A model generated the notes under the pieces. It saw only the letters and a program-made list of their open reading frames with translations, made no database searches and had not been told where the DNA came from. Of a stretch of DNA of 64,000 bases, positions 1,555-59,949 are shown piece by piece. The position numbers were made by a program, and so were the translations under genes. The stretch is from Octopus vulgaris (lineage: Eukaryota), in assembly GCA_951406725.2 (NCBI GenBank), contig OX597836.1, forward strand, positions 31,124,001-31,188,000. The letters are read 5' to 3'. Every line of letters starts with the position of its first letter. Positions within the stretch are counted from its first letter, which is position 1.

Positions 1555-2025
1555 GTAAAAACACATCAACATTCTGCACCCACCTCTATAGCAGTGACCA
1601 CCATGGACCACTTTCATGCAAGATGATTCCTTTCCATAGACTAAGGCACAAAAAGAAAACGACTCTCCCCAGACACAACAGAATTTAGCTATCATTCAGC
1701 TAGTGTTAGGAACATAAATTGTGACTAAGGTTTGGTGGTAAATTTTTATTCAAAACTTGTGAAAATAAGACATTTGTACCCAGAGCCAGAGCCGGTTTCA
1801 GCCGGGTTGATAATGAAAGGGTTAATAATGACAAAGGTTTTGCTTGAAACATCATTTAGTGTTGATCTTTTTAAACAAGATATTGTGTACAGAATGTTTC
1901 CGAATAAATTTTGGTTTTAGTTTTTAGCTTTCATTTTGGCTGACCTTTGTTTTAATGTTCTGGGTAGATTTGATACACGGAATTCTGAAATTTTGTTTAC
2001 GATCGACTTATTTTTCCATTTCCAG

Positions 2026-2202
2026 CGTGTATTAAAAGACCTTGTACAAGACAAACTTCCCCGACTACACGGCTACCTAGAGAAAGAAAACATTGATTTG
2101 TCTTTATTCACTTTCAATTGGTTCCTTACCATATTTGTTGACAATGTACCTCCAGAGACTTTCCTACGAGTCTGGGATGCCTTCTTGTATGAAGGAAGCA
2201 AG
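2026..2202 (+). CDS. TBC1D2B: TBC1D2B-like exon (RVLKDLVQDKLPRLHGYL...FNWFLTIF...LRVWDAFLYEGSK)
   Basis: ttccag acceptor, AAG|gtcagt donor, 177 nt. Carries TBC C-terminal motifs WFLTxF and LRxWD. Confidence 0.94.
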
Positions 2203-2343
2203 GTCAGTCTGGTTTCTCTTTCCTTTTTGCATCAGAAATGAATTCCGAAATATAAAAATCTCTAAATATAGTAAATTACCAATTTATGGTTAATTAAGAT
2301 TGTTTTTAAGAATAATTGTGATTTTGCTATAATTTCTTTCCAG

Positions 2344-8520: not shown

Positions 8521-9072
8521 GGACTTTGGTTGACTCTAAGGCCCTTTGATTATATATATATAATGGTGTATGATACAAGGTATAACTAATGGTCATTGCA
8601 TACTTTTCCTTTATCAGAGCAAATCTGGCTTACAGCTGTTTCCAGTAGTCATTATAGGTACATTACTCAATTGGTCTAATGATCAGTTGTGAACAATTGA
8701 ATGACCTAATGAAATTAATGCTACTTTTGTCAGAGCCATTTCTGGTTATAACAAAGCAGAACATTGAAGGAAATGGTATGTGCAAGGTGTATGTGTGTTG
8801 TAAGTTAGTAGTGTTTTGTGTGTTTTTTTTTGCTCAGGTCTCCTCCTCAACATAACTTACCTCCATGGTGTCCACTCATAAACAGTACTAATTTATCCCT
8901 TGTAATTTTTGTAATTGTTGTTGTTGTATCACATAAAAACAAAGTGTTTGTAGCAGCTAACTAAAAAAATAATAATTTTTATGCAGATTTAATGTGACAT
9001 CAATAACATTTCAATCACCGTTTAATTATATCAGCAGTTAATATTTACTTAGTATATGGTGCCAGTGGATAT

Positions 9073-9118
9073 TTGCCACTGATGAAGCTTAAAAAAGGCA
9101 GAAATCCAGATCTAGTAA
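9073..9118 (+). ncRNA. Hammerhead-like motif, repeat family H2
   Basis: UUGCCA-CUGAUGA-AGCUU..AGGCA-GAAA-UCCAGA-UC-UAGUAA. Confidence 0.55.
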
Positions 9119-10718
9119 TGCCACCACTACTACTGGGCAATCTTTAGCTGCTGCTGATACATTTCTGTTTTTAATACTATATGTCTATGGAGATGCTTTC
9201 TCAGGATAAGTGCCTGTCACTTAGCGGTTCCGCAAAAGGGACCGATAGAATAAGTACTGGGCTTACAAAGAATAAGTCCCGGGGTCGAGTTGCTCGATTA
9301 AAGGCAGTGCTCCAGCATGGCCACAGTCAAATGACTGAAACAAGTAAAGAGAGTAAAGAGAAAGAACTAGAAACATGCAATATTTAATAATGTCAATGTT
9401 ATATCCTTTTGTGTTGTGAGTATACCAAATATCTTCATAAGAATCGGTAAACACTATTGTTTCTATGTAATTGTCATTGTTTTGTATTTTGTCCTAATAA
9501 TTAATAGCATGTAATGAATAATAAACTGTCGTTATGTTTAACATATACTATTAAAATTGCTCGTTTCCCATTACTCCCTACCATTACTGTCTCTCTTCCA
9601 TTACTCAACCTCCTACTATCATCTCATCCCTGTAACTCATTCTCTCACTTCTTTCACCCACTCACCTTCATTCATTTTCTGTCATTGCCCTCACTCCTGT
9701 TCAGTGTCTTGAATGAATGTAGACAATGTAGAGTATTGAAAGCTCTTTAGTCCTGCAGGGTACAAGGCAACCTCATAAATGCTGGTGCTATGATGCAAAT
9801 GCACTGAAGTATGCTCTGTAAAGTGGTTGGTGTTAGGAAGAACTTCCAGCCATAGAAACTATGCTAAAATTGCACAATCAAGATGTGATCCTTCAAGGGA
9901 CAGTAAACTTGGACAAGAACTGACTCAGAAAGATAGTTTCCTCTGAATAACAGCTGGCTCAAAACATGATGGACTTGACCTTTGTCAGCATGGAAAAAAA
10001 TGGATATAAAATGAGGGTGGTGATGATGATGATGATGGCGTTGGCAGCAGCAGCAATGAAAAATAAAATAGGATGATGACAGAGAGATGTTACATCAGAG
10101 TGTTAAATTTGTATGCAGTCTCCTCACAAAATTTGGTCTCTCAAATGCAAAAACTTTCACACACACACACACCTTTTATTTTCACATGTAGCCTATAAAA
10201 AGTGGTATACCTCTACGTCGCTAAAGGCTGTGTGGCTCTTGGTTAAAAATAACTGTTTTAAATAAATCACTATCAAGACTCTTCTATGGCACAGTGTGTG
10301 TGTTGATATGTGACATCTGAGTGTAATCTGTTCAACCTGTGATTTACCCCTGGACAGTCTTACTTCAGTCTTGTTGGTCAAGCAGCGTCTGCTGTGCTTG
10401 TAGAGGCCTACACAGGAGTGACAGTACTGGTTACAGTAACAGCAATTGAATATATTATTTGCCAATGTTATCTAGGATTTTTAGTAGCAACAGAAGCAGT
10501 ATTAGTTCTAATTAGTGATCTGTATATATACTTAATTTGTATATACAGTTAAAAGCTTTCTAAACTATAGTACTCACCAATTTGAACTAATACTGGTTCC
10601 ATCACCAATAATGAATTTTATTTGGCCTGCCAATTAAATGTGACATCAGTAACCTTTCAAGCATCGTTTAATTATATCAGCAGTTAATATTCACTTAGCA
10701 TATAGTGCCAGTGGATAT

Positions 10719-10764
10719 TTGCCACTGATGAAGCTTAAAAAAAGCAGAAATCCAGATCTAGTAA
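10719..10764 (+). ncRNA. Hammerhead-like motif, repeat family H2
   Basis: UUGCCA-CUGAUGA-A-GCUU(A5)AAGC-A-GAAA-UCCAGA-UC-UAGUAA. Confidence 0.6.
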
Positions 10765-11513
10765 TGCCACCACTACTACTGGGCAATCTTTAGCTGCTGC
10801 TGATACATTTCTATGTTTTTAATACCATATTTCTATATCAATAGTTCTCTTGGGTATTTTGTTTTTGTTCAATGCACTTTACTTTCAGCTGCATGCCTCA
10901 GATTCTCACTTCTTTTCAAACCTCTACCTAGTTCCAATCTCCAATTATGGCAGATGCTTGCAACGCCCTCCTATCTTTCAATGTTTATATTAAGTAACTT
11001 CATGTCTTTTTTGCAGACATTTTTGAAAGAAAGATGGGTGGTTTGCTCTTGTGCTCCCTTGTCAAAGGCCAGCACCCCACGCAAGCGATTCTTTCAGGAT
11101 GCTCCCATCTTCATGCGATGTATGTGGTCCTGCCTGCAGAGACAATGTCATTCTTTCCGTTCCAGCACACTCTCCAGTCACTTGCCAAACAAGTACAACT
11201 CTGTAATAATTTATACTGATCATAGAAAACTATGCACTCTTACTTTCTTTCATACGTTTCTCATTGACATTTTTTTAAAGTAGTCCACATCATCATCACC
11301 AACACCACCACCACCACCACCATCATCATTATTATAACCAATGTGGGAATCTGTGTGTAGTCACTCATTGACCTGCTAGAGATTGACCAGGTGAATCTCT
11401 CTCAAATCCCAGCCCTGCCATCTTTAAACAGGGCACATTGGATAGTGCATCCAAGATACACAAAGCCGGAAACATACTAATGCCTGTGATCACTAATTTG
11501 AGCAAACAATAAG

Positions 11514-23432: not shown

Positions 23433-24084
23433 TCTGAGTTCAAATTGTGTTGAGGTTGACTTTGTCTTTCATCCTTTTTCAGGGTCGATAAATTAAGTAC
23501 CAGTTACATACTCGGGTCGATGTAATCGACTTAGCCCCGCCCCCAAATTTCAGGCCTTGTGCCTTTAATAGAAAGGATAATAATTATTATTATTATTATT
23601 ATTATTATTAGTTTCCAACTAGCAATAACCACGCCTCGGATTTACCTCATTGGCCATGGTACTGCCTCTGCGGTACCATTTTACCGTTGAGTGTGTTACA
23701 TTATAAGGCACAAAAAGAAAATGACTCTCCCCAGACACAACAGAATATGCTTCAACACACGAAGTCATATAAAGAATCTTGCAAACCAAATCCAAAAACG
23801 AAACATTAAACACTATGTGTACTCAGGAAACAGATGTTCTTGAATGCCCAGCAGCAGTCAAAGGTCAGCTAGCAGCAGTAGTAGAATCGCTAGTTCTAGA
23901 TTTCTGATTTTAGCTTCATCAGTAGCAGGTATGTAAGTCACCTCATGCCAAGCAAATCTAAACTAGCTGATATGGATAAACAAAGATTGTAAGGTCACTG
24001 ATGTTTGTATTTGGCCAGAAAACTGGGCAATAATTCAGCTTTAGCAACAGAATTAGATTTAGTTCAAAATTAGCAATCTGTATA

Positions 24085-29082: not shown

Positions 29083-29928
29083 CACTTGTAATTCCTTTTA
29101 TCTTCAGTTATTCTATTCCAAATCCTTGCCACTTGTCATCCACCCTGATTACATTTATAAACTGCAGATCATTCAAACCCATTTCTCTTCTCCACCCTAA
29201 GCATATATTAACACCAGCGACTGAAGGGGCTTTTATGTGATCATGCCAACTGCTAGAAATAACAACTGAATCTTCTTCCAGTTACACTACACCATCATAA
29301 AAATAGATGGACATATTTGTTACCAATATAAACTGTGTTGTATTGGTGTTATCCTTGTTTAGCCCTGAGTCACTCCTGACTGAGAAGACCTATGATCAAA
29401 GATATTCCATCCATGGCTATTCCATCTTGTTTCTATACTTCATGTGCTTAGGACTTCATTATCAAATGTATCTTTTCTTCATTTATGGTTGCAGAGTGAG
29501 ATATTGGAGAGATTTGGTTGCTATTTCTAGCTGGTCAGAGATCTATATAGAGGTTTCTTCATTGGCCTGGTGATTTGATGTTAGTCAACATGACTTAGCA
29601 GTTCAGCAAGAGCAACTGATAGAATAAGTACTGGGCTTACAAAGAATAAGTCCTGGGGTCGATTTGCTCGACTAAAGGCGGTGCTCCAGCATGGCCGCAG
29701 TCAAATGACTGAAACAAAATAAAAGAAAAAAAAAGAAAAAGATGAACGTGGTAGCTGTACTAGCAAGTAATGTTTGTTGCCTCTTCAACATGGCTGTTCC
29801 ATTCAAACAGACGTTACTGCAATTTTTTAACCCCGAGAGGACATTTCCTCTGGTAGGTTAACGATGCAACCTGCAACTAATATATTGCAAGCAGGGGAGC
29901 GAACCCCTGCCACCTTCTAGCGACAAGA

Positions 29929-29978
29929 CCAGTTGACCAGTTGGTTTCGGGTTATTTTCTGCCCATCTTCAGTACTGG
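29929..29978 (-). ncRNA. Type I hammerhead ribozyme motif (GUC site)
   Basis: Minus strand reads CCAGUA-CUGAAGA-U-GGG..CCC-GAAA-CCAACUGG-UC-AACUGG. Core intact and stems I, II and III can all pair. Confidence 0.8.
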
Positions 29979-31234
29979 ACACTTTGCCTGCTAGAGATGG
30001 CAGTAGCTCGCTTCTGTTCGTAATATATATTTAAATTCAAGCAACATTTGGTTGCTGATCTTGCAGTAATACTTATGACAATGCAATAACATAAGATAAA
30101 GCAGCATTCATAATAATGTAATATCATGTCACGTGACCAACCAGGCTATCAGATGTTGCTGGTCACAATGCGTTTCGCATTGTTTTAGCCATCAAATGAT
30201 GCCACCCCTCTGACTAAACGACCAGGCCAACAGAACAAATAGTGAGAGAAAGTTGCGGCAAAGGAGTACAGCAGGGATCGCCACTACTCCCTGCCAGATC
30301 CAATAAACACTCACAACGCCTGGTCTGGGAATTGAAACCGCGATCCAACGACCACGAGTCCGCTGCCCTAACCACTAGGCCATTGCGCCTCCACTAACAA
30401 TGTAATAAGATCCTTGAAATCAATGCCAAATCTCACAAATGACTTAGTTACTAGAATTAATTATCAATACTTTATGCATAAATAGATTGACTTCATACTA
30501 AATGTCTACCAGACTTAGCTGATTAATGAATGTACAAGATATTCTAGTAAACAGACTCTTGTGACAAATCGTTGAAATGTTTACTAGTCTTTCGTAATAG
30601 CTGTCTTTAGTATTGGCAAACATCTTCAAAATGTCCTTATAAATGTCAAAACCAGCTGTGCAGAATAGCTAAGATGCCAAGGATGTGATTTTCCACAGAA
30701 CTAACCTACGCCTTAATTCGCTGTGAAAATTGTTGCTTTTTGTGTCTTGCTTGAATGGATGCCAAAGGATTATCATTTAAATCCTCATCCTCTCAAGTTT
30801 CATTTTTCAAAGTACTGATAGCTGCAAAAAAAGTTGGCAAGAGAAAAGCAATTATTACCATTAGATAAACATTCATGATTTTTTGAATTAATAGCTCCGA
30901 GGCCATGATTTGCCATTGTCAGTAATTGTGGATAAATAATATCATTAGCAATTCTGGAAATAAAAGAATCATTTCCTGACTCTTTTTCATGCCATCTGCT
31001 AGTTTTTTTGGAATTATAGTCTTTTACTTGATGTTTTAGCCCTACAAGTGAACTTATCTCTGATTCTTAAACTCAATCATGTTGCTGGGTTTTTTTGTCA
31101 GAAGATAAAAAGCAGTGAGTATATTACAAGATTATCAAAAATATTTTTTCAAAGCTTGACAGCTTTGAATGCTATGAAAGTTCTCATAAAACAAATAATT
31201 TATTCACAAGTTCAATCTTATTATTAGACCAGGT

Positions 31235-50645: not shown

Positions 50646-51470
50646 ACAGTGGGCAGTGAATAGACTGTTGTCTAAATTATGCAAAAATGAAAATAACACT
50701 GACACCTCATTTTAACAGATATATTTACCAAAATTACATAAAAATATCTTGAAATCCTAAAGAGTAAATTTATTCAATAAAATCGCCATTGGCTTCAACC
50801 AAGGCCTCCAGACAACTTCAGAATCTCCTGCAGCTCTTTTGAACAGTCTCCTTGTTTAAGTTGGTGAATGCTGCCATAATCCTTGCCTTCAGTTCATCTT
50901 TGGTGTGTTACAAGGAGTTTTGTTGGTCTCTCACTCAACTGTGCAGCATACATAATAATCAAGGGGGTTGCAGTCTGGAGAGTTAGGTGGCCAGATGTTA
51001 GGGGTGATGTGGTCGCAGAATTTGTCTGACAGCTATGACTGGGTTCACCTCCTTGTGTGGCATGGTGCAGAGTCCTGTTGCCAGATACAGGGTCTTCCAG
51101 CATCCACCCTTGTGACCTCCGTGTTCAGTCTGAGGCCATGTAGAAAGATGAATTGAGGCATTACGTCACCATCACTAGTGATCACTCCAAACACCATGAT
51201 GTTGACTGGATGTTTGATTTTTATCCCTCTCAGTACATATTCTCAAACACTCTGAAATGTTTGTATTGGAGCTTCCAGCATGAATGCCAAACAGTACAGC
51301 ATGTCATTTCCAAATTTCTGGCAGAGTGAATTGCGTCATGGTGCTGTTTTTCTCACAGACAGTGCCCAACTGACCCTACTATATTGTATAGTCAACAAAT
51401 TCAAAAAACAAAGTGCATGCGCAAAATTAAAAATATAAAATGGTGACAATTTGTCCATTATACCCCTATA
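50646..51470 (-). mobile_element. DD37D (maT)-type Tc1/mariner relic
   Basis: Minus-strand peptide NIWPPNSPDCNPLDYYV. Confidence 0.75.
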
Positions 51471-51518
51471 TATATAGCTCTCATATTGTATCCGTTTCTT
51501 TCCTTGTTATATTTACAG

Positions 51519-51680
51519 ATTCTGTTACTGTTGAACTGATAGGCAAAATATGTTTGATCGGGTTAAACTGTCCTGAAAAGAAGAATGCTGTTAATTCTCA
51601 AACTGCCCACAGTCTGTATCGGGCTTTTCAGGACTTTGAACACAATGACCAGACACACGTTGCGGTATTATTTGGTAAAG
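51519..51680 (+). CDS. Enoyl-CoA hydratase-family exon 2 (DSVTVELIGKICLIGLNCPEKKNAVN...VAVLFGKG)
   Basis: tttacag acceptor, G|gtaagc donor. Crotonase LNxPxKxNA motif. Confidence 0.92.
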
Positions 51681-51959
51681 GTAAGCGTGCGATTTTGTTT
51701 GTTTATGACCGTATTGTGATAGATGCGTTTCTTTTAATTCTTTTGTTCTTTTACTTGTTTCAGTTATTTGACTGCGACCATGCTGGAGCACCGCCTTAAA
51801 GGGTGTTAGTTGAAGAAATCGACCCCCCCCCAGGACTTATTGTTTGTAAGCCTAGTACTTATTCTATCGGTCTCTTTTGCCGAACTGCTAGGTTACTGAG
51901 ACATAGACACACTACCATCAGTTGTCAAGTGATGGCAGGGGGAATAAACACAAACACTC

Positions 51960-52204: not shown

Positions 52205-53490
52205 TCATCATCATCGTTTAACGTCCGCTTTCCGCGCTAGCACGGGTTGGACGGTTTGACCGGGTCTGGGAAGCCAGGGGCCGCTCCAGGCTCCAGTCTG
52301 AATCTGGCAGAGTTTCTACGGCTGGATGCCCTTCCTAACGCCAACCACTCCGTGAGTGGATTGGGTGCTTTTTACGTGCCACCTGCACAGGGGCCGGAGG
52401 GTCCGGCATCGTCACGATCGGATTCGAGCATTTTAACGTGTCAGCGGCACGGGGGCAACGAGGTCCGGGGTACTTTGGGGATCGGGGTATTTTGGGGATC
52501 CAGGGTACTTTGGGGATCCGGGGTACTTTGGGGATCTGGGGTACTTAGAATGGGTAGGGGGTACTTAGAATGGGTAGGGGGGTACTTAGAATGGGTAGGG
52601 GGGTACTTAGAATGGGTAGGGGGTATGTGGAATTGCTGCAGAAAGCAGCCCGGGTCTTTGTAGTCACAGCATATCTCCAGAGATCTCGGTCCTTCGCCAT
52701 TGCCTCAGTGAGGCCCAATGCTCTGAGGTCATGCTTGACCACCTCATCCCATGTCTTCCTGGGTCTACCTCTCCCCCTGATACCTTCAACTGTTTGGGAG
52801 TGGCACTTCTTCACACATCTCTCTTCATCCATCCGCAGCACATGACCATACCATCGCAAGCGTCGCTCTTGCACACCACATCTGATGCTTCTTATATCCA
52901 GCATTTCTCTCAGGATACTTACACTCTGTTTTGCGTGCACACTGACACTACACATCCAGCGGATCATGCTAGCTTCATTTCTTTCAAGTCTACGCATGTC
53001 TTCTGCAGTCACAGCCCATGTTTCATTACCGTGAAGCATGGCAGTTCGCACACATGCATCATATAATCTACCTTTTGCTCTGAGGGAGAGGCCTTTTGTT
53101 GCCAGTAGGGGTAGGAGCTTTCTGAACTTTGCCCAGGCTATTCGTATTCTAGTGGTGATACTCTCTGTGCATCCACCTCCGCTACTAACTTGGTCTCCCA
53201 GGTAGCGGAAACTATCAACTACTTCTAGTTTCTCTCCCTGGAGTGTGATGGAATCTGTTTTCTGAGTGTCTGTTGTGTCTATTGTCCCTGTGCATCTGCC
53301 GCACATGTAAGCTATCTTATCTGTTAATTTCCCTTTAATGTTGCTGCACCTCTTATGTGTCCATAACTTACATTGGGTGCATCTTATGGAGTTTCTACCT
53401 GTACCTTTCCTACAGGTTGAGCAGGGCCACCTACCCGAGGGGATGTGTGTTGAGTACCTCTTGCTGCTTACTAATACTTTGGTCTTTGCT
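52205..53490 (-). mobile_element. 5'-truncated RTE-type LINE with internal 18-21 bp tandem repeats (52465-52625)
   Basis: VDSFRYLGD..AWAKFRKL..RLRWYGHVLRM..GRGRPRKTW, a Cys-rich insert CTQCKLWTHKRC, and a (GAT)n tail. Confidence 0.92.
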
Positions 53491-53497
53491 ACATTTA

Positions 53498-53540
<43 letters not shown>

Positions 53541-54553: not shown

Positions 54554-54672
54554 GCGTATGGCCATATCACGTTGAAAGTACTGGTTCTTGTCTGATCACT
54601 GAAGTTAAGCAACGTCAAGCCTAGTTAGTACTTAGATGGGTGACTGCTTGGGAAACCTAGGTGCTGTAAGTG
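54554..54672 (+). pseudogene. Full-length dispersed 5S rRNA pseudogene (intronic)
   Basis: GCGTATGGCCATATCACGTTGAA...GAAGTTAAGCAACGTC...GTTAGTACTTAGATGGGTGACTGCTTGGGAAACCTAGGTGCTGTAAG follows the invertebrate 5S sequence. Many CpG transitions and no oligo-T terminator. Confidence 0.9.
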
Positions 54673-58959: not shown

Positions 58960-59333
58960 CATTATTATTATTATTATTATATAGATGATGATGATGACAA
59001 TGAGAATGACTTTACAGGTGTTTCCCCTCAGTTTCCTTAATCACAACAGTCAGTAGACAGTAGTTATTTGTTAAGCTAAGAATAACAAAAACTATATGAA
59101 ATAAGAATCTTACACATTTGGTCAAGTCCCACCACATAATCTTCACTTGTGGTTGTTACTTTTGCCATTGTTTTTTTGTGTTCAAAGTTGGCCCCAATTG
59201 ATAAAAGACAATCCAGCCATGATCATCTTCCCAACCCTTATTTTAGACATAGGTTACCCTCCACAGTTAGCTCCCCCAAAACTCGTTTCTGTTTGATATT
59301 TTATTCTCATATTCTTTTTCTTAATCTTTTCAG

Positions 59334-59483
59334 GAGTCCCCCTTGTTGATGGTTGCACAGTAAGATTACCAAAACTCATTGGTTTATCTCGTGCCATGGA
59401 TTTAATTCTGACCGGTCGGCCAGTTGACAGTAAAGAAGCTCTCCAAATTGGTCTTGCTAACAGAGTAGTTCCTAACGGGACAG
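59334..59483 (+). CDS. Enoyl-CoA hydratase-family exon 5 (GVPLVDGCTVRLPKLIGLSRAMDLILTGRPVDSKEALQIGLANRVVPNGT)
   Basis: ttttcag acceptor, CAG|gtaatt donor, 150 nt, phase 1-1. Confidence 0.95.
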
Positions 59484-59949
59484 GTAATTATTGTTATTGT
59501 ATATTCTGTACTCCTTTAAAGGGCCTTGTGTTTCTCAAGGAAGGAGAAGCAAAATATTTAGAGATCACACCTGGTTATTCTCACACCAGTTCCTATAACT
59601 GTGTGTCTCCTTTACAGCAGCACACCTGTTTCTATTCTCATTCTTAATAACTCTCTCTCTCCTTCTCTGGCCAGGTAACTGTACCTCCTCCTCTACAGCA
59701 AGACATCTGTATCTGTCTCTCTTATTTCTTTATTGCCCACAAGGGGCTAAACATAGAGGGGACAAACAAGGACAGACAAAGGGATTAAGTCGATTACATC
59801 GACCCCAGTAGTACTTAATTTATCGACCCTGAAAGGATGAAAGGCAAAGTCGACCTTGGTGGAATTTGAACTCAGAACGTAGCAGCAGACGAAATACCAC
59901 TAAGCATTTTGCCCGGCATGCTAACATAATTATATCAACCCCAATGCTT

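Follow-up and report, generated by a model that had tools for sequence, protein, structure and literature searches.

The hammerhead ribozyme motif at about 29.9 kb of the window (the whole 64-kb stretch of Octopus vulgaris DNA analysed here) lies, we are confident, in an old, mutated copy that stands alone and belongs to a family of 361-bp repeats. The family has several hundred members and was likely spread as a non-LTR retrozyme by a Penelope-type reverse transcriptase (RT); the copy itself is likely inactive.

The hammerhead and the copy that carries it

A type I hammerhead can be read directly on the minus strand, with an intact core, a GUC triplet and a predicted cut between 29935 and 29934 (Table 1). 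The first-pass annotation had described it as a near-canonical GUC hammerhead, and all the parts it listed (CCAGU/ACUGG, CUGAAGA, one extra U, GGG/CCC, GAAA, ACCA/UGGU and GUC) were found where it had placed them. The residues expected of a hammerhead core (C3-A9, G12-A14, A15.1-U16.1 and H17) are all present in the window copy. Stem III forms as ACCA/UGGU with a 2-nt loop or, alternatively, as 3 bp plus AACU. The family has the three helices of a type I hammerhead, and its helix I is the open one and stays paired as far as the cut, positions 1.1 and 2.1 being paired in 51/57 copies; in the window copy this pairing is interrupted by the closing A-A mismatch that had been annotated, A29934 standing opposite A29973. 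A loose hammerhead descriptor matched three times in the window, but only the 29879..30031 locus had three proper stems. A strict descriptor gave one match in the window and one match in 150 simulated 64-kb windows, and we conclude from this that the motif is more than a chance occurrence. The annotation had also proposed a check with Infernal-type hammerhead models; this gave no support, as the hammerhead models of an Rfam scan had no match to the motif at E<=1.

Table 1. Features of the hammerhead locus (window positions).
Feature	Position	Strand	Remarks
Solo copy, ~0.9 unit (329 bp), of the 361-bp retrozyme-like repeat	29737..30065	minus	BLAST against 30 loci
T-rich stretch and very high-copy short repeat, not part of the element	29593..29736	minus	abuts/truncates the element 3' end
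Long imperfect hairpin extending stem I	29879..30031	minus	fold z -5.36
Putative TATA-like box TATATATTA (TATATATTG in most copies)	30021..30029	minus	22 nt upstream of predicted start
Predicted transcription start, unit position +298	29998	minus	LINE insertion site in other copies, empty here
Stem I 5' strand CCAGU	29978-29974, plus A29973 (position 2.1)	minus	sequence
Catalytic core CUGAAGA (C3-A9), intact	29972-29966	minus	sequence
Unpaired extra U between A9 and G10.1, subfamily trait	29965	minus	common to L002, L116, L108, L155
Stem II GGG 29964-29962 / CCC 29951-29949, 3 bp, 10-nt loop	29949..29964	minus	loop 2 ends AAAUA
GAAA	29948-29945	minus	sequence
GAAA and stem III	29936..29948	minus	ACCAACUGGU here, perfect palindrome ACCAGCUGGU in sister copies
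Predicted cleavage site after GUC (C17 = 29935); A29934 (position 1.1) mismatched	29934..29935	minus	
Stem I 3' strand ACUGG	29933-29929	minus	sequence

The surrounding 153-nt stretch folds as a single long hairpin (-59.9 kcal/mol, z -5.36, with 0/200 shuffles as good) with about 40-45 pairs in addition to those of the ribozyme, which comes near the ~150-nt hairpin and the extension of stem I by ~50 imperfect bp first claimed. Its outer 10-bp helix has 8/10 pairs in the window copy and 9-10/10 in 35/56 copies; the outer part of the hairpin, above 29998, would occur only in read-through or circular RNA. The minimum-energy fold of the stretch is not a hammerhead: CCAGU, the 5' strand of stem I, pairs with the first of two ACUGG repeats, abolishing stem III. 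A competing fold stands at 66%. Forcing the three hammerhead stems costs 1.8-2.6 kcal/mol, corresponding to 1.4-5% of the ensemble in four sequence contexts, under a nearest-neighbour model that ignores loop 1-loop 2 tertiary contacts, which stabilise natural hammerheads. Where such a contact might form, the family has an internal loop that follows the 6 bp of stem I, and its loop 2 closes with AAAUA, as in the Schistosoma ribozyme; relative to the family, the window copy has a longer loop 2 and has lost its closing pair. Among the 33 copies with an intact core that were folded, the window copy had the largest computed hammerhead fraction, with constraints that were not like for like, so that residual or weak cleavage in vitro is possible. 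The CUGG repeats also suggested a strand-swap switch as a design of the family; the switch was dominant in only 7/34 parsed copies and was not retained as established.

The window copy consists of a single arm that runs from +233 to +195 of the unit, counted from the cut, with one hammerhead and no second or inverted arm. The repeat abutting its 3' end has a summed contig depth of about 7e7 and resembles other copies inside the window. With one 0.9-unit arm, one hammerhead and a 3' end cut off by another repeat, the window copy cannot release unit-length RNA. Nowhere else in the 64-kb window did the element match significantly at the DNA level (best other E 0.2), in agreement with the claim that it is unrelated to the other hammerhead families, here the H2 repeats at ~9.0 and ~10.7 kb. 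The latter are two 94% identical repeats on the plus strand (8987-9188 and 10633-10836), each with a CUGAUGA...GAAA hammerhead-like core, and weaker relatives lie at ~23.9 and ~24.7 kb.

Recognised exons flank the window copy on the plus strand, opposite to the hammerhead, and a host transcript across the locus would therefore carry its antisense. A Pfam scan of 204 frames of the window found no exon near 29.9 kb. The window holds a Rab-GAP TBC gene exon at 1921-2238 (plus) and enoyl-CoA hydratase gene exons at 51431-51796 and 59297-59644 (plus). Upstream of the element, at 30200-30392 (minus), there is what we take to be a tRNA-derived SINE-like repeat. Also present are a U4 snRNA copy with a degenerate 3' half (23552-23679, minus) and a 5S rRNA copy (54554-54672, plus), both probably pseudogenes, and a 330-aa frame (52545-53537, minus) that combines a PHD-like finger with the C-terminal part of a LINE ORF2.

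The repeat family and the decay of its copies

The 361-bp period of the non-coding unit comes from a real tandem in one locus (L007). A family search of the 2.8-Gb genome gave 42 matches among 876 candidates, at 80-87% identity. A 16-letter pattern covering stem I and core had 205 exact matches genome-wide, against 3 for a control pattern, and was present in 19/64 sampled copies; from these two figures the family would comprise about 690 copies and probably more, a number that rests on exact patterns and BLAST, with the sampled copies chosen by similarity to the queries. The family appears to be old, because the best pair among 32 copies was 88% identical and none exceeded this, the tree of 77 copies was star-like with a median end branch of 0.093, and longer exact patterns were rare (12 exact 31-mers and 16 exact 29-mers). 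Its age would be about 25 million years if the octopus scale given in PMC13282606 applies.

The majority motif, with a 6-bp stem I, internal loop 1, CUGANGA, stem II with loop AGAAAUA, GAAA, a palindromic stem III and GUC, corresponds in sequence to a canonical metazoan type I hammerhead. The lack of a conserved core in homologues had been named as a finding that would speak against the ribozyme; at the level of the family, the majority core is canonical. In most copies G10.1-C11.1 is followed by a bulged base, and a G follows A9 in 49/57. Nine rows form a clade (support 94/88) in which, by contrast, A9 is followed by an unpaired A or U and stem II has 4 bp. Inside this clade the window copy groups with L002 and L116 (support 100/99), and L155 has the same layout; the extra base is an A in some sister copies and a U in the window copy, L002, L116, L108 and L155. 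This placement, together with the layout of L155, identifies the extra U as a subfamily trait, and the tree rules out that it is a private change of G10.1. The extra U of the annotation also has a precedent, an unpaired nucleotide at the foot of stem II being reported in working hammerheads (PMC4209133). Of two exact 17-mers that include the extra U, one was found in the window copy only and the other in the window copy and L108 only.

Divergent sister copies (L156, L160, L161, L163 and L166) have other stem II solutions and a shorter palindromic stem III. The stem II variants among sisters include A10.1-U11.1 with loop CAAAUA, and AGGG/CCCU versus AGAG/CUCU; the latter changes between sister subfamilies keep pairing, as judged by eye in a few copies. 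A short palindromic stem III has been described as a signature of double-hammerhead cleavage in tandem transcripts (PMC4209133).

Decay was assessed in the 64/77 copies that had not been picked by the core pattern, after columns with <70% majority or occupancy had been dropped. Core G/C positions differed from the majority in 13.7% of cases versus 12.9% elsewhere (p 0.70), core A/T positions in 5.2% versus 6.2% (p 0.42), and the core was intact in 23/64 copies. In a 57-copy alignment, 88.6% of the cells pair, but the covariation score was reached by 229/500 shuffles, and RNAalifold on these copies returned no structure. Because the core mutates as fast as its flanks, covariation is absent and 23/64 cores are intact, we conclude that inserted copies decay neutrally, with no excess conservation of the core. 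A check by genome copy number and covariation had been suggested in the annotation: the motif is indeed multi-copy, at ~690 estimated copies, but covariation among the 57 copies equals that of shuffles. The commonest variants preserve pairing (G-U/A-U and U-G/U-A, at three positions), which is what selection confined to the founders would leave behind.

Position 1.1 is a U in 54/57 copies and an A in the window copy only; position 2.1 is an A in 51/57. Since the likely orthologs also have a U at 1.1, the A-A mismatch next to the cut is a lesion of the window copy. A 1.1-2.1 mismatch in a hammerhead carries a penalty in cleavage rate. Further lesions are the loss of the fourth pair of stem II, which is GGGC/GCCC (4 bp) in sister copies and 3 bp here, and the broken palindrome of stem III.

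In three related species (B, C and D), contigs at single-copy depth were 93-94% identical to the window copy over ~250 nt and adjoining contigs ran into its unique flank; they are, therefore, likely orthologs. They have a U at 1.1 and a 1-nt deletion at 29931/29932, in the 3' strand of stem I. For species E, no such long piece was found among the contigs listed. A low-depth contig from run X8, a run presumed to be RNA and labelled organism A (depth 2.2, 190 nt), reaches across the cut site with 8 differences and 1 gap, and has a U at 1.1 and a change at C11.1, so that the 1.1 mismatch may be limited to the sequenced haplotype. No change in the core CUGAAGA was listed for the likely orthologs of the three species or for X8; this points against decay, although not significantly at ~6% divergence, where we estimate the chance of such an outcome at roughly 1 in 4.

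A putative promoter, insertions and a proposed cycle

A box similar to the TATA-like box of the unit lies 21 nt upstream of +1 in tandem U6 genes (L134-L137; 4/12 U6 loci viewed), and the similar spacing of 22 nt between the TATA and +298 makes a transcription start at +298 likely. U6-type (type 3) promoters are recognised by a TATA at about -30 plus a PSE; no PSE likeness was seen by eye near the unit TATA. Newt satellite 2 has an snRNA-type promoter. The tandem U6 genes (G000:C1:139.42 Mb) are ~1.1-1.4 kb apart, and their ATGCAAAT octamer is unusually close (about -77) to the start. A start at +298 would explain the tandem design, in that the promoter would be retained solely in RNA that had read through and been cut at two hammerheads.

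Eleven of 110 arms start at +298/299. Reverse-transcriptase run-off was ruled out as the cause of this cluster in the copies examined, which are LINE junctions. In two of six extended loci (L138 and L140) the upstream part of the unit reappears beyond a truncated LINE; in the other four, no far end turned up over 9 kb. L138 (G000:C7, near 60.88 Mb) has a 5'-truncated LINE at +298 with an 18-nt target duplication (17/18 identical) and an RT fragment (PF00078), and L140 (G000:C2, near 126.27 Mb) a 5'-truncated LINE at +298 with a 16-nt target duplication. A similar AATAAA flank occurs at the +298 site in nine loci. The inserted LINE presumably belongs to the Tx1 clade.

The 97 arms of 63 loci were placed on the unit, with positions counted from the cut. 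Among the 64 arms from loci picked without use of the whole unit, 34 end at +164-176 or +224-236, versus 7% expected for these two 13-nt windows, which were picked after the data had been viewed. A (TA)n-type or microsatellite flank was found at 42/54 ends in the two windows and at 10/43 other ends. Two arms joined 5' to 5' were present in 26/63 loci, and one locus was joined 3' to 3'; in six of the two-armed loci one arm has the +170 and the other the +230 end, in no locus do both arms have the same preferred end, and in 20 at least one arm ends at some other position. Both preferred 3' ends (+170 and +230) fall in TRCTT^GTTR, and a T5 run (+222-226) lies just before the second. Arms longer than one unit, up to 809 bp, numbered 27/97. 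At least two hammerheads in tandem were seen in 5/97 arms, the window copy being solo. The cut site is crossed by 77/97 arms, twice by 5/97, and only three have an end <=5 nt from it. Thus, the templates were circles or uncut multimers, which fit the data equally, and not cut linear monomers.

Insertions of Penelope-like elements (PLEs) are described as partial tandems with inverted copies, a tail and microsatellite targets (10.1101/2021.04.23.441226). As partial tandems, an inverted 5' arm, offset ends and microsatellite targets are all present here, the insertion geometry of the family looks like a PLE-type footprint. The family is dispersed and multi-copy, with neither LTR nor ORF. No arm continues into an ORF, and no joined RT/GIY-YIG ORF was found in 72 loci with 1.5-kb flanks; the PLE fragments among the ORFs of these loci (L008, L010 and L023) are separate neighbours. 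The RT/GIY-YIG element beside L008 was considered as an autonomous partner and rejected, as the young family to which it belongs (150 scored copies, 95-100% aa identity) has no DNA in common with the unit. In this comparison, which covered one PLE family, no autonomous element related to the 361-bp family in DNA came to light.

A young Penelope-like family with an RT, a zinc-finger-like linker and GIY-YIG was seen at L073:3472-5801 (G000:C2:52.53 Mb; 19,452 first-look candidates), and we assume that it belongs to the Neptune clade. It has many long open frames, and its 3' end enters a conserved microsatellite-like tract, in which inspection by eye showed no obvious canonical hammerhead.

We propose that a founder tandem array would have been transcribed from the putative TATA-type promoter inside the unit, with its start at +298. 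The read-through RNA would have been cut at successive hammerheads, singly or as double hammerheads formed through the palindromic stem III, yielding 361-nt monomers and then circles in which the promoter sequence was included. At (TA)n targets, a Penelope-like RT/GIY-YIG enzyme would have started cDNA synthesis from two fixed sites (+170 and +230), and copying past the cut site would have produced partial tandems and inverted second arms; the inserted copies, that of the window included, would then have decayed neutrally. A fuller version of this scheme, to which we give somewhat less than even credence, makes the family the fossil of a full retrozyme cycle: a circle with its own U6-like TATA promoter, a Penelope-type enzyme priming both (TA)n strands from twin TRCTT^GTTR sites at +170 and +230, one per arm, a LINE parasite at the start site, and founders that stayed mobile while the unpaired base next to stem II slid, at its foot, from one register to another of two.

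The first-pass annotation had singled out the motif as the best candidate for monomeric activity. We find no support for this as biology, given the 1.1-2.1 mismatch, the lost stem II pair, the broken stem III palindrome, the solitary state of the copy and a hammerhead fold of ~1-5%. We consider it very unlikely that the copy has been kept as a functional ribozyme that cuts as a monomer, whether domesticated or still transcribed from a promoter of its own. The intact core, TATA box and long hairpin, the unchanged core listed for the likely orthologs, the highest computed hammerhead fraction among 33 copies and the extra nucleotide reported at the same position in working hammerheads (PMC4209133) would fit such a role, but the mismatch here, the stem I deletion in the likely orthologs, the C11.1 change in X8, the 66% competing fold and an orientation antisense to both flanking genes argue against it. 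Moreover, only 1/9 predicted genomic retrozyme dimers cleaved in the vertebrate study (bioRxiv 10.64898/2026.07.22.740005).

The PLE-like geometry, and the match of vertebrate retrozymes to PLE pseudo-LTRs (pLTRs; 10.64898/2026.07.22.740005), would also suit a 361-bp unit that is the pseudo-LTR of an extinct autonomous Penelope-like element, its copies being 5'-truncated insertions and not a self-standing retrozyme. However, the 27/97 arms that run past one unit enter more 361-bp unit and never an ORF, the PLE fragments at three loci are separate neighbours, and the hammerhead is full and canonical instead of the minimal pLTR type, so that we regard this origin as very unlikely. A chance motif in a MITE-like hairpin repeat, with no ribozyme ancestry, would agree with the absence of an Rfam match and of covariation among copies. 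This appears extremely improbable in view of the single strict match in 150 simulated windows, of a family majority in which no core base is missing, stem I has 6 bp, loop 1 is internal and loop 2 is of the AAAUA type, and of sister subfamilies that vary stem II yet stay paired (AGGG/CCCU, AGAG/CUCU, loop CAAAUA). The reading that we favour remains that of an old retrozyme family spread by a Penelope-type enzyme.

Relation to known retrozymes and Penelope-like elements

By the criteria that can be tested on DNA, the 361-bp family belongs with the non-LTR retrozymes (PMC7229834; 10.64898/2026.07.22.740005): its unit is non-coding, has a length of 361 bp, inside the 150-450 bp expected, and has one type I hammerhead. 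The kind is already known from mussels and corals. A literature search found no report of a cephalopod retrozyme, and the main text of one octopus repeat annotation does not mention ribozymes or retrozymes. The window copy alone matters little. The family, in turn, is an old and independent replicate of features that bear on how animal retrozymes return to DNA: fixed priming sites that share a motif, two-armed insertions, arms that cross the cut, an apparent promoter inside the unit and a site-specific LINE.

The closest counterparts appear to include the 350-390-bp repeats of Mytilus galloprovincialis (PMC7229834), which likewise have a type I hammerhead in a non-coding 150-450-bp unit with GC <50%, occur as tandem and solo copies without an LTR, and share their genome with PLEs. 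Unlike them, the octopus family is made up of old, decayed copies, among which no young array came to light, and is known here from DNA alone; it has also retained a loop 2 of the Schistosoma type, a feature missing from most of the mussel ribozymes, and its two fixed 3' ends and two-armed insertions are features not described for the Mytilus repeats in the portion of that report available to us. The vertebrate non-LTR retrozymes derived from PLE pLTRs (10.64898/2026.07.22.740005) resemble the family in dispersed monomers, unit size and proposed PLE mobilisation. They differ in that no parental pLTR was found for the 361-bp family, and the vertebrate study, as far as its available text goes, sampled no mollusc. 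By the definition used there, two consecutive complete hammerheads, the solo window copy is not an active retrozyme.

With the EN+ Penelope-like insertions (10.1101/2021.04.23.441226) the family shares partial tandems, an inverted 5'-truncated copy at the 5' end, an extra tail on one end and microsatellite targets, but the offset between its two ends is ~60 nt, compared with 30-40 in those elements. It also differs from EN+ PLEs in having no ORF and a full canonical hammerhead in place of a minimal one (10.1101/2021.04.23.441226; PMC4209133). At the level of the ribozyme itself, the family resembles the Sm-alpha hammerhead of Schistosoma mansoni in its 6-bp helix I, internal loop 1 and short palindromic stem III (PMC2632901; PMC6155905), and its loop 2 ends in AAAUA as in Sm-alpha, with the exact CAAAUA in sister copies L156 and L160 (PMC2632901). 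It departs from Sm-alpha in the unpaired base at the foot of stem II and in a longer palindromic stem III (10-12 nt), and the window copy, in addition, in its mismatch at 1.1-2.1 (PMC2632901; PMC6155905).
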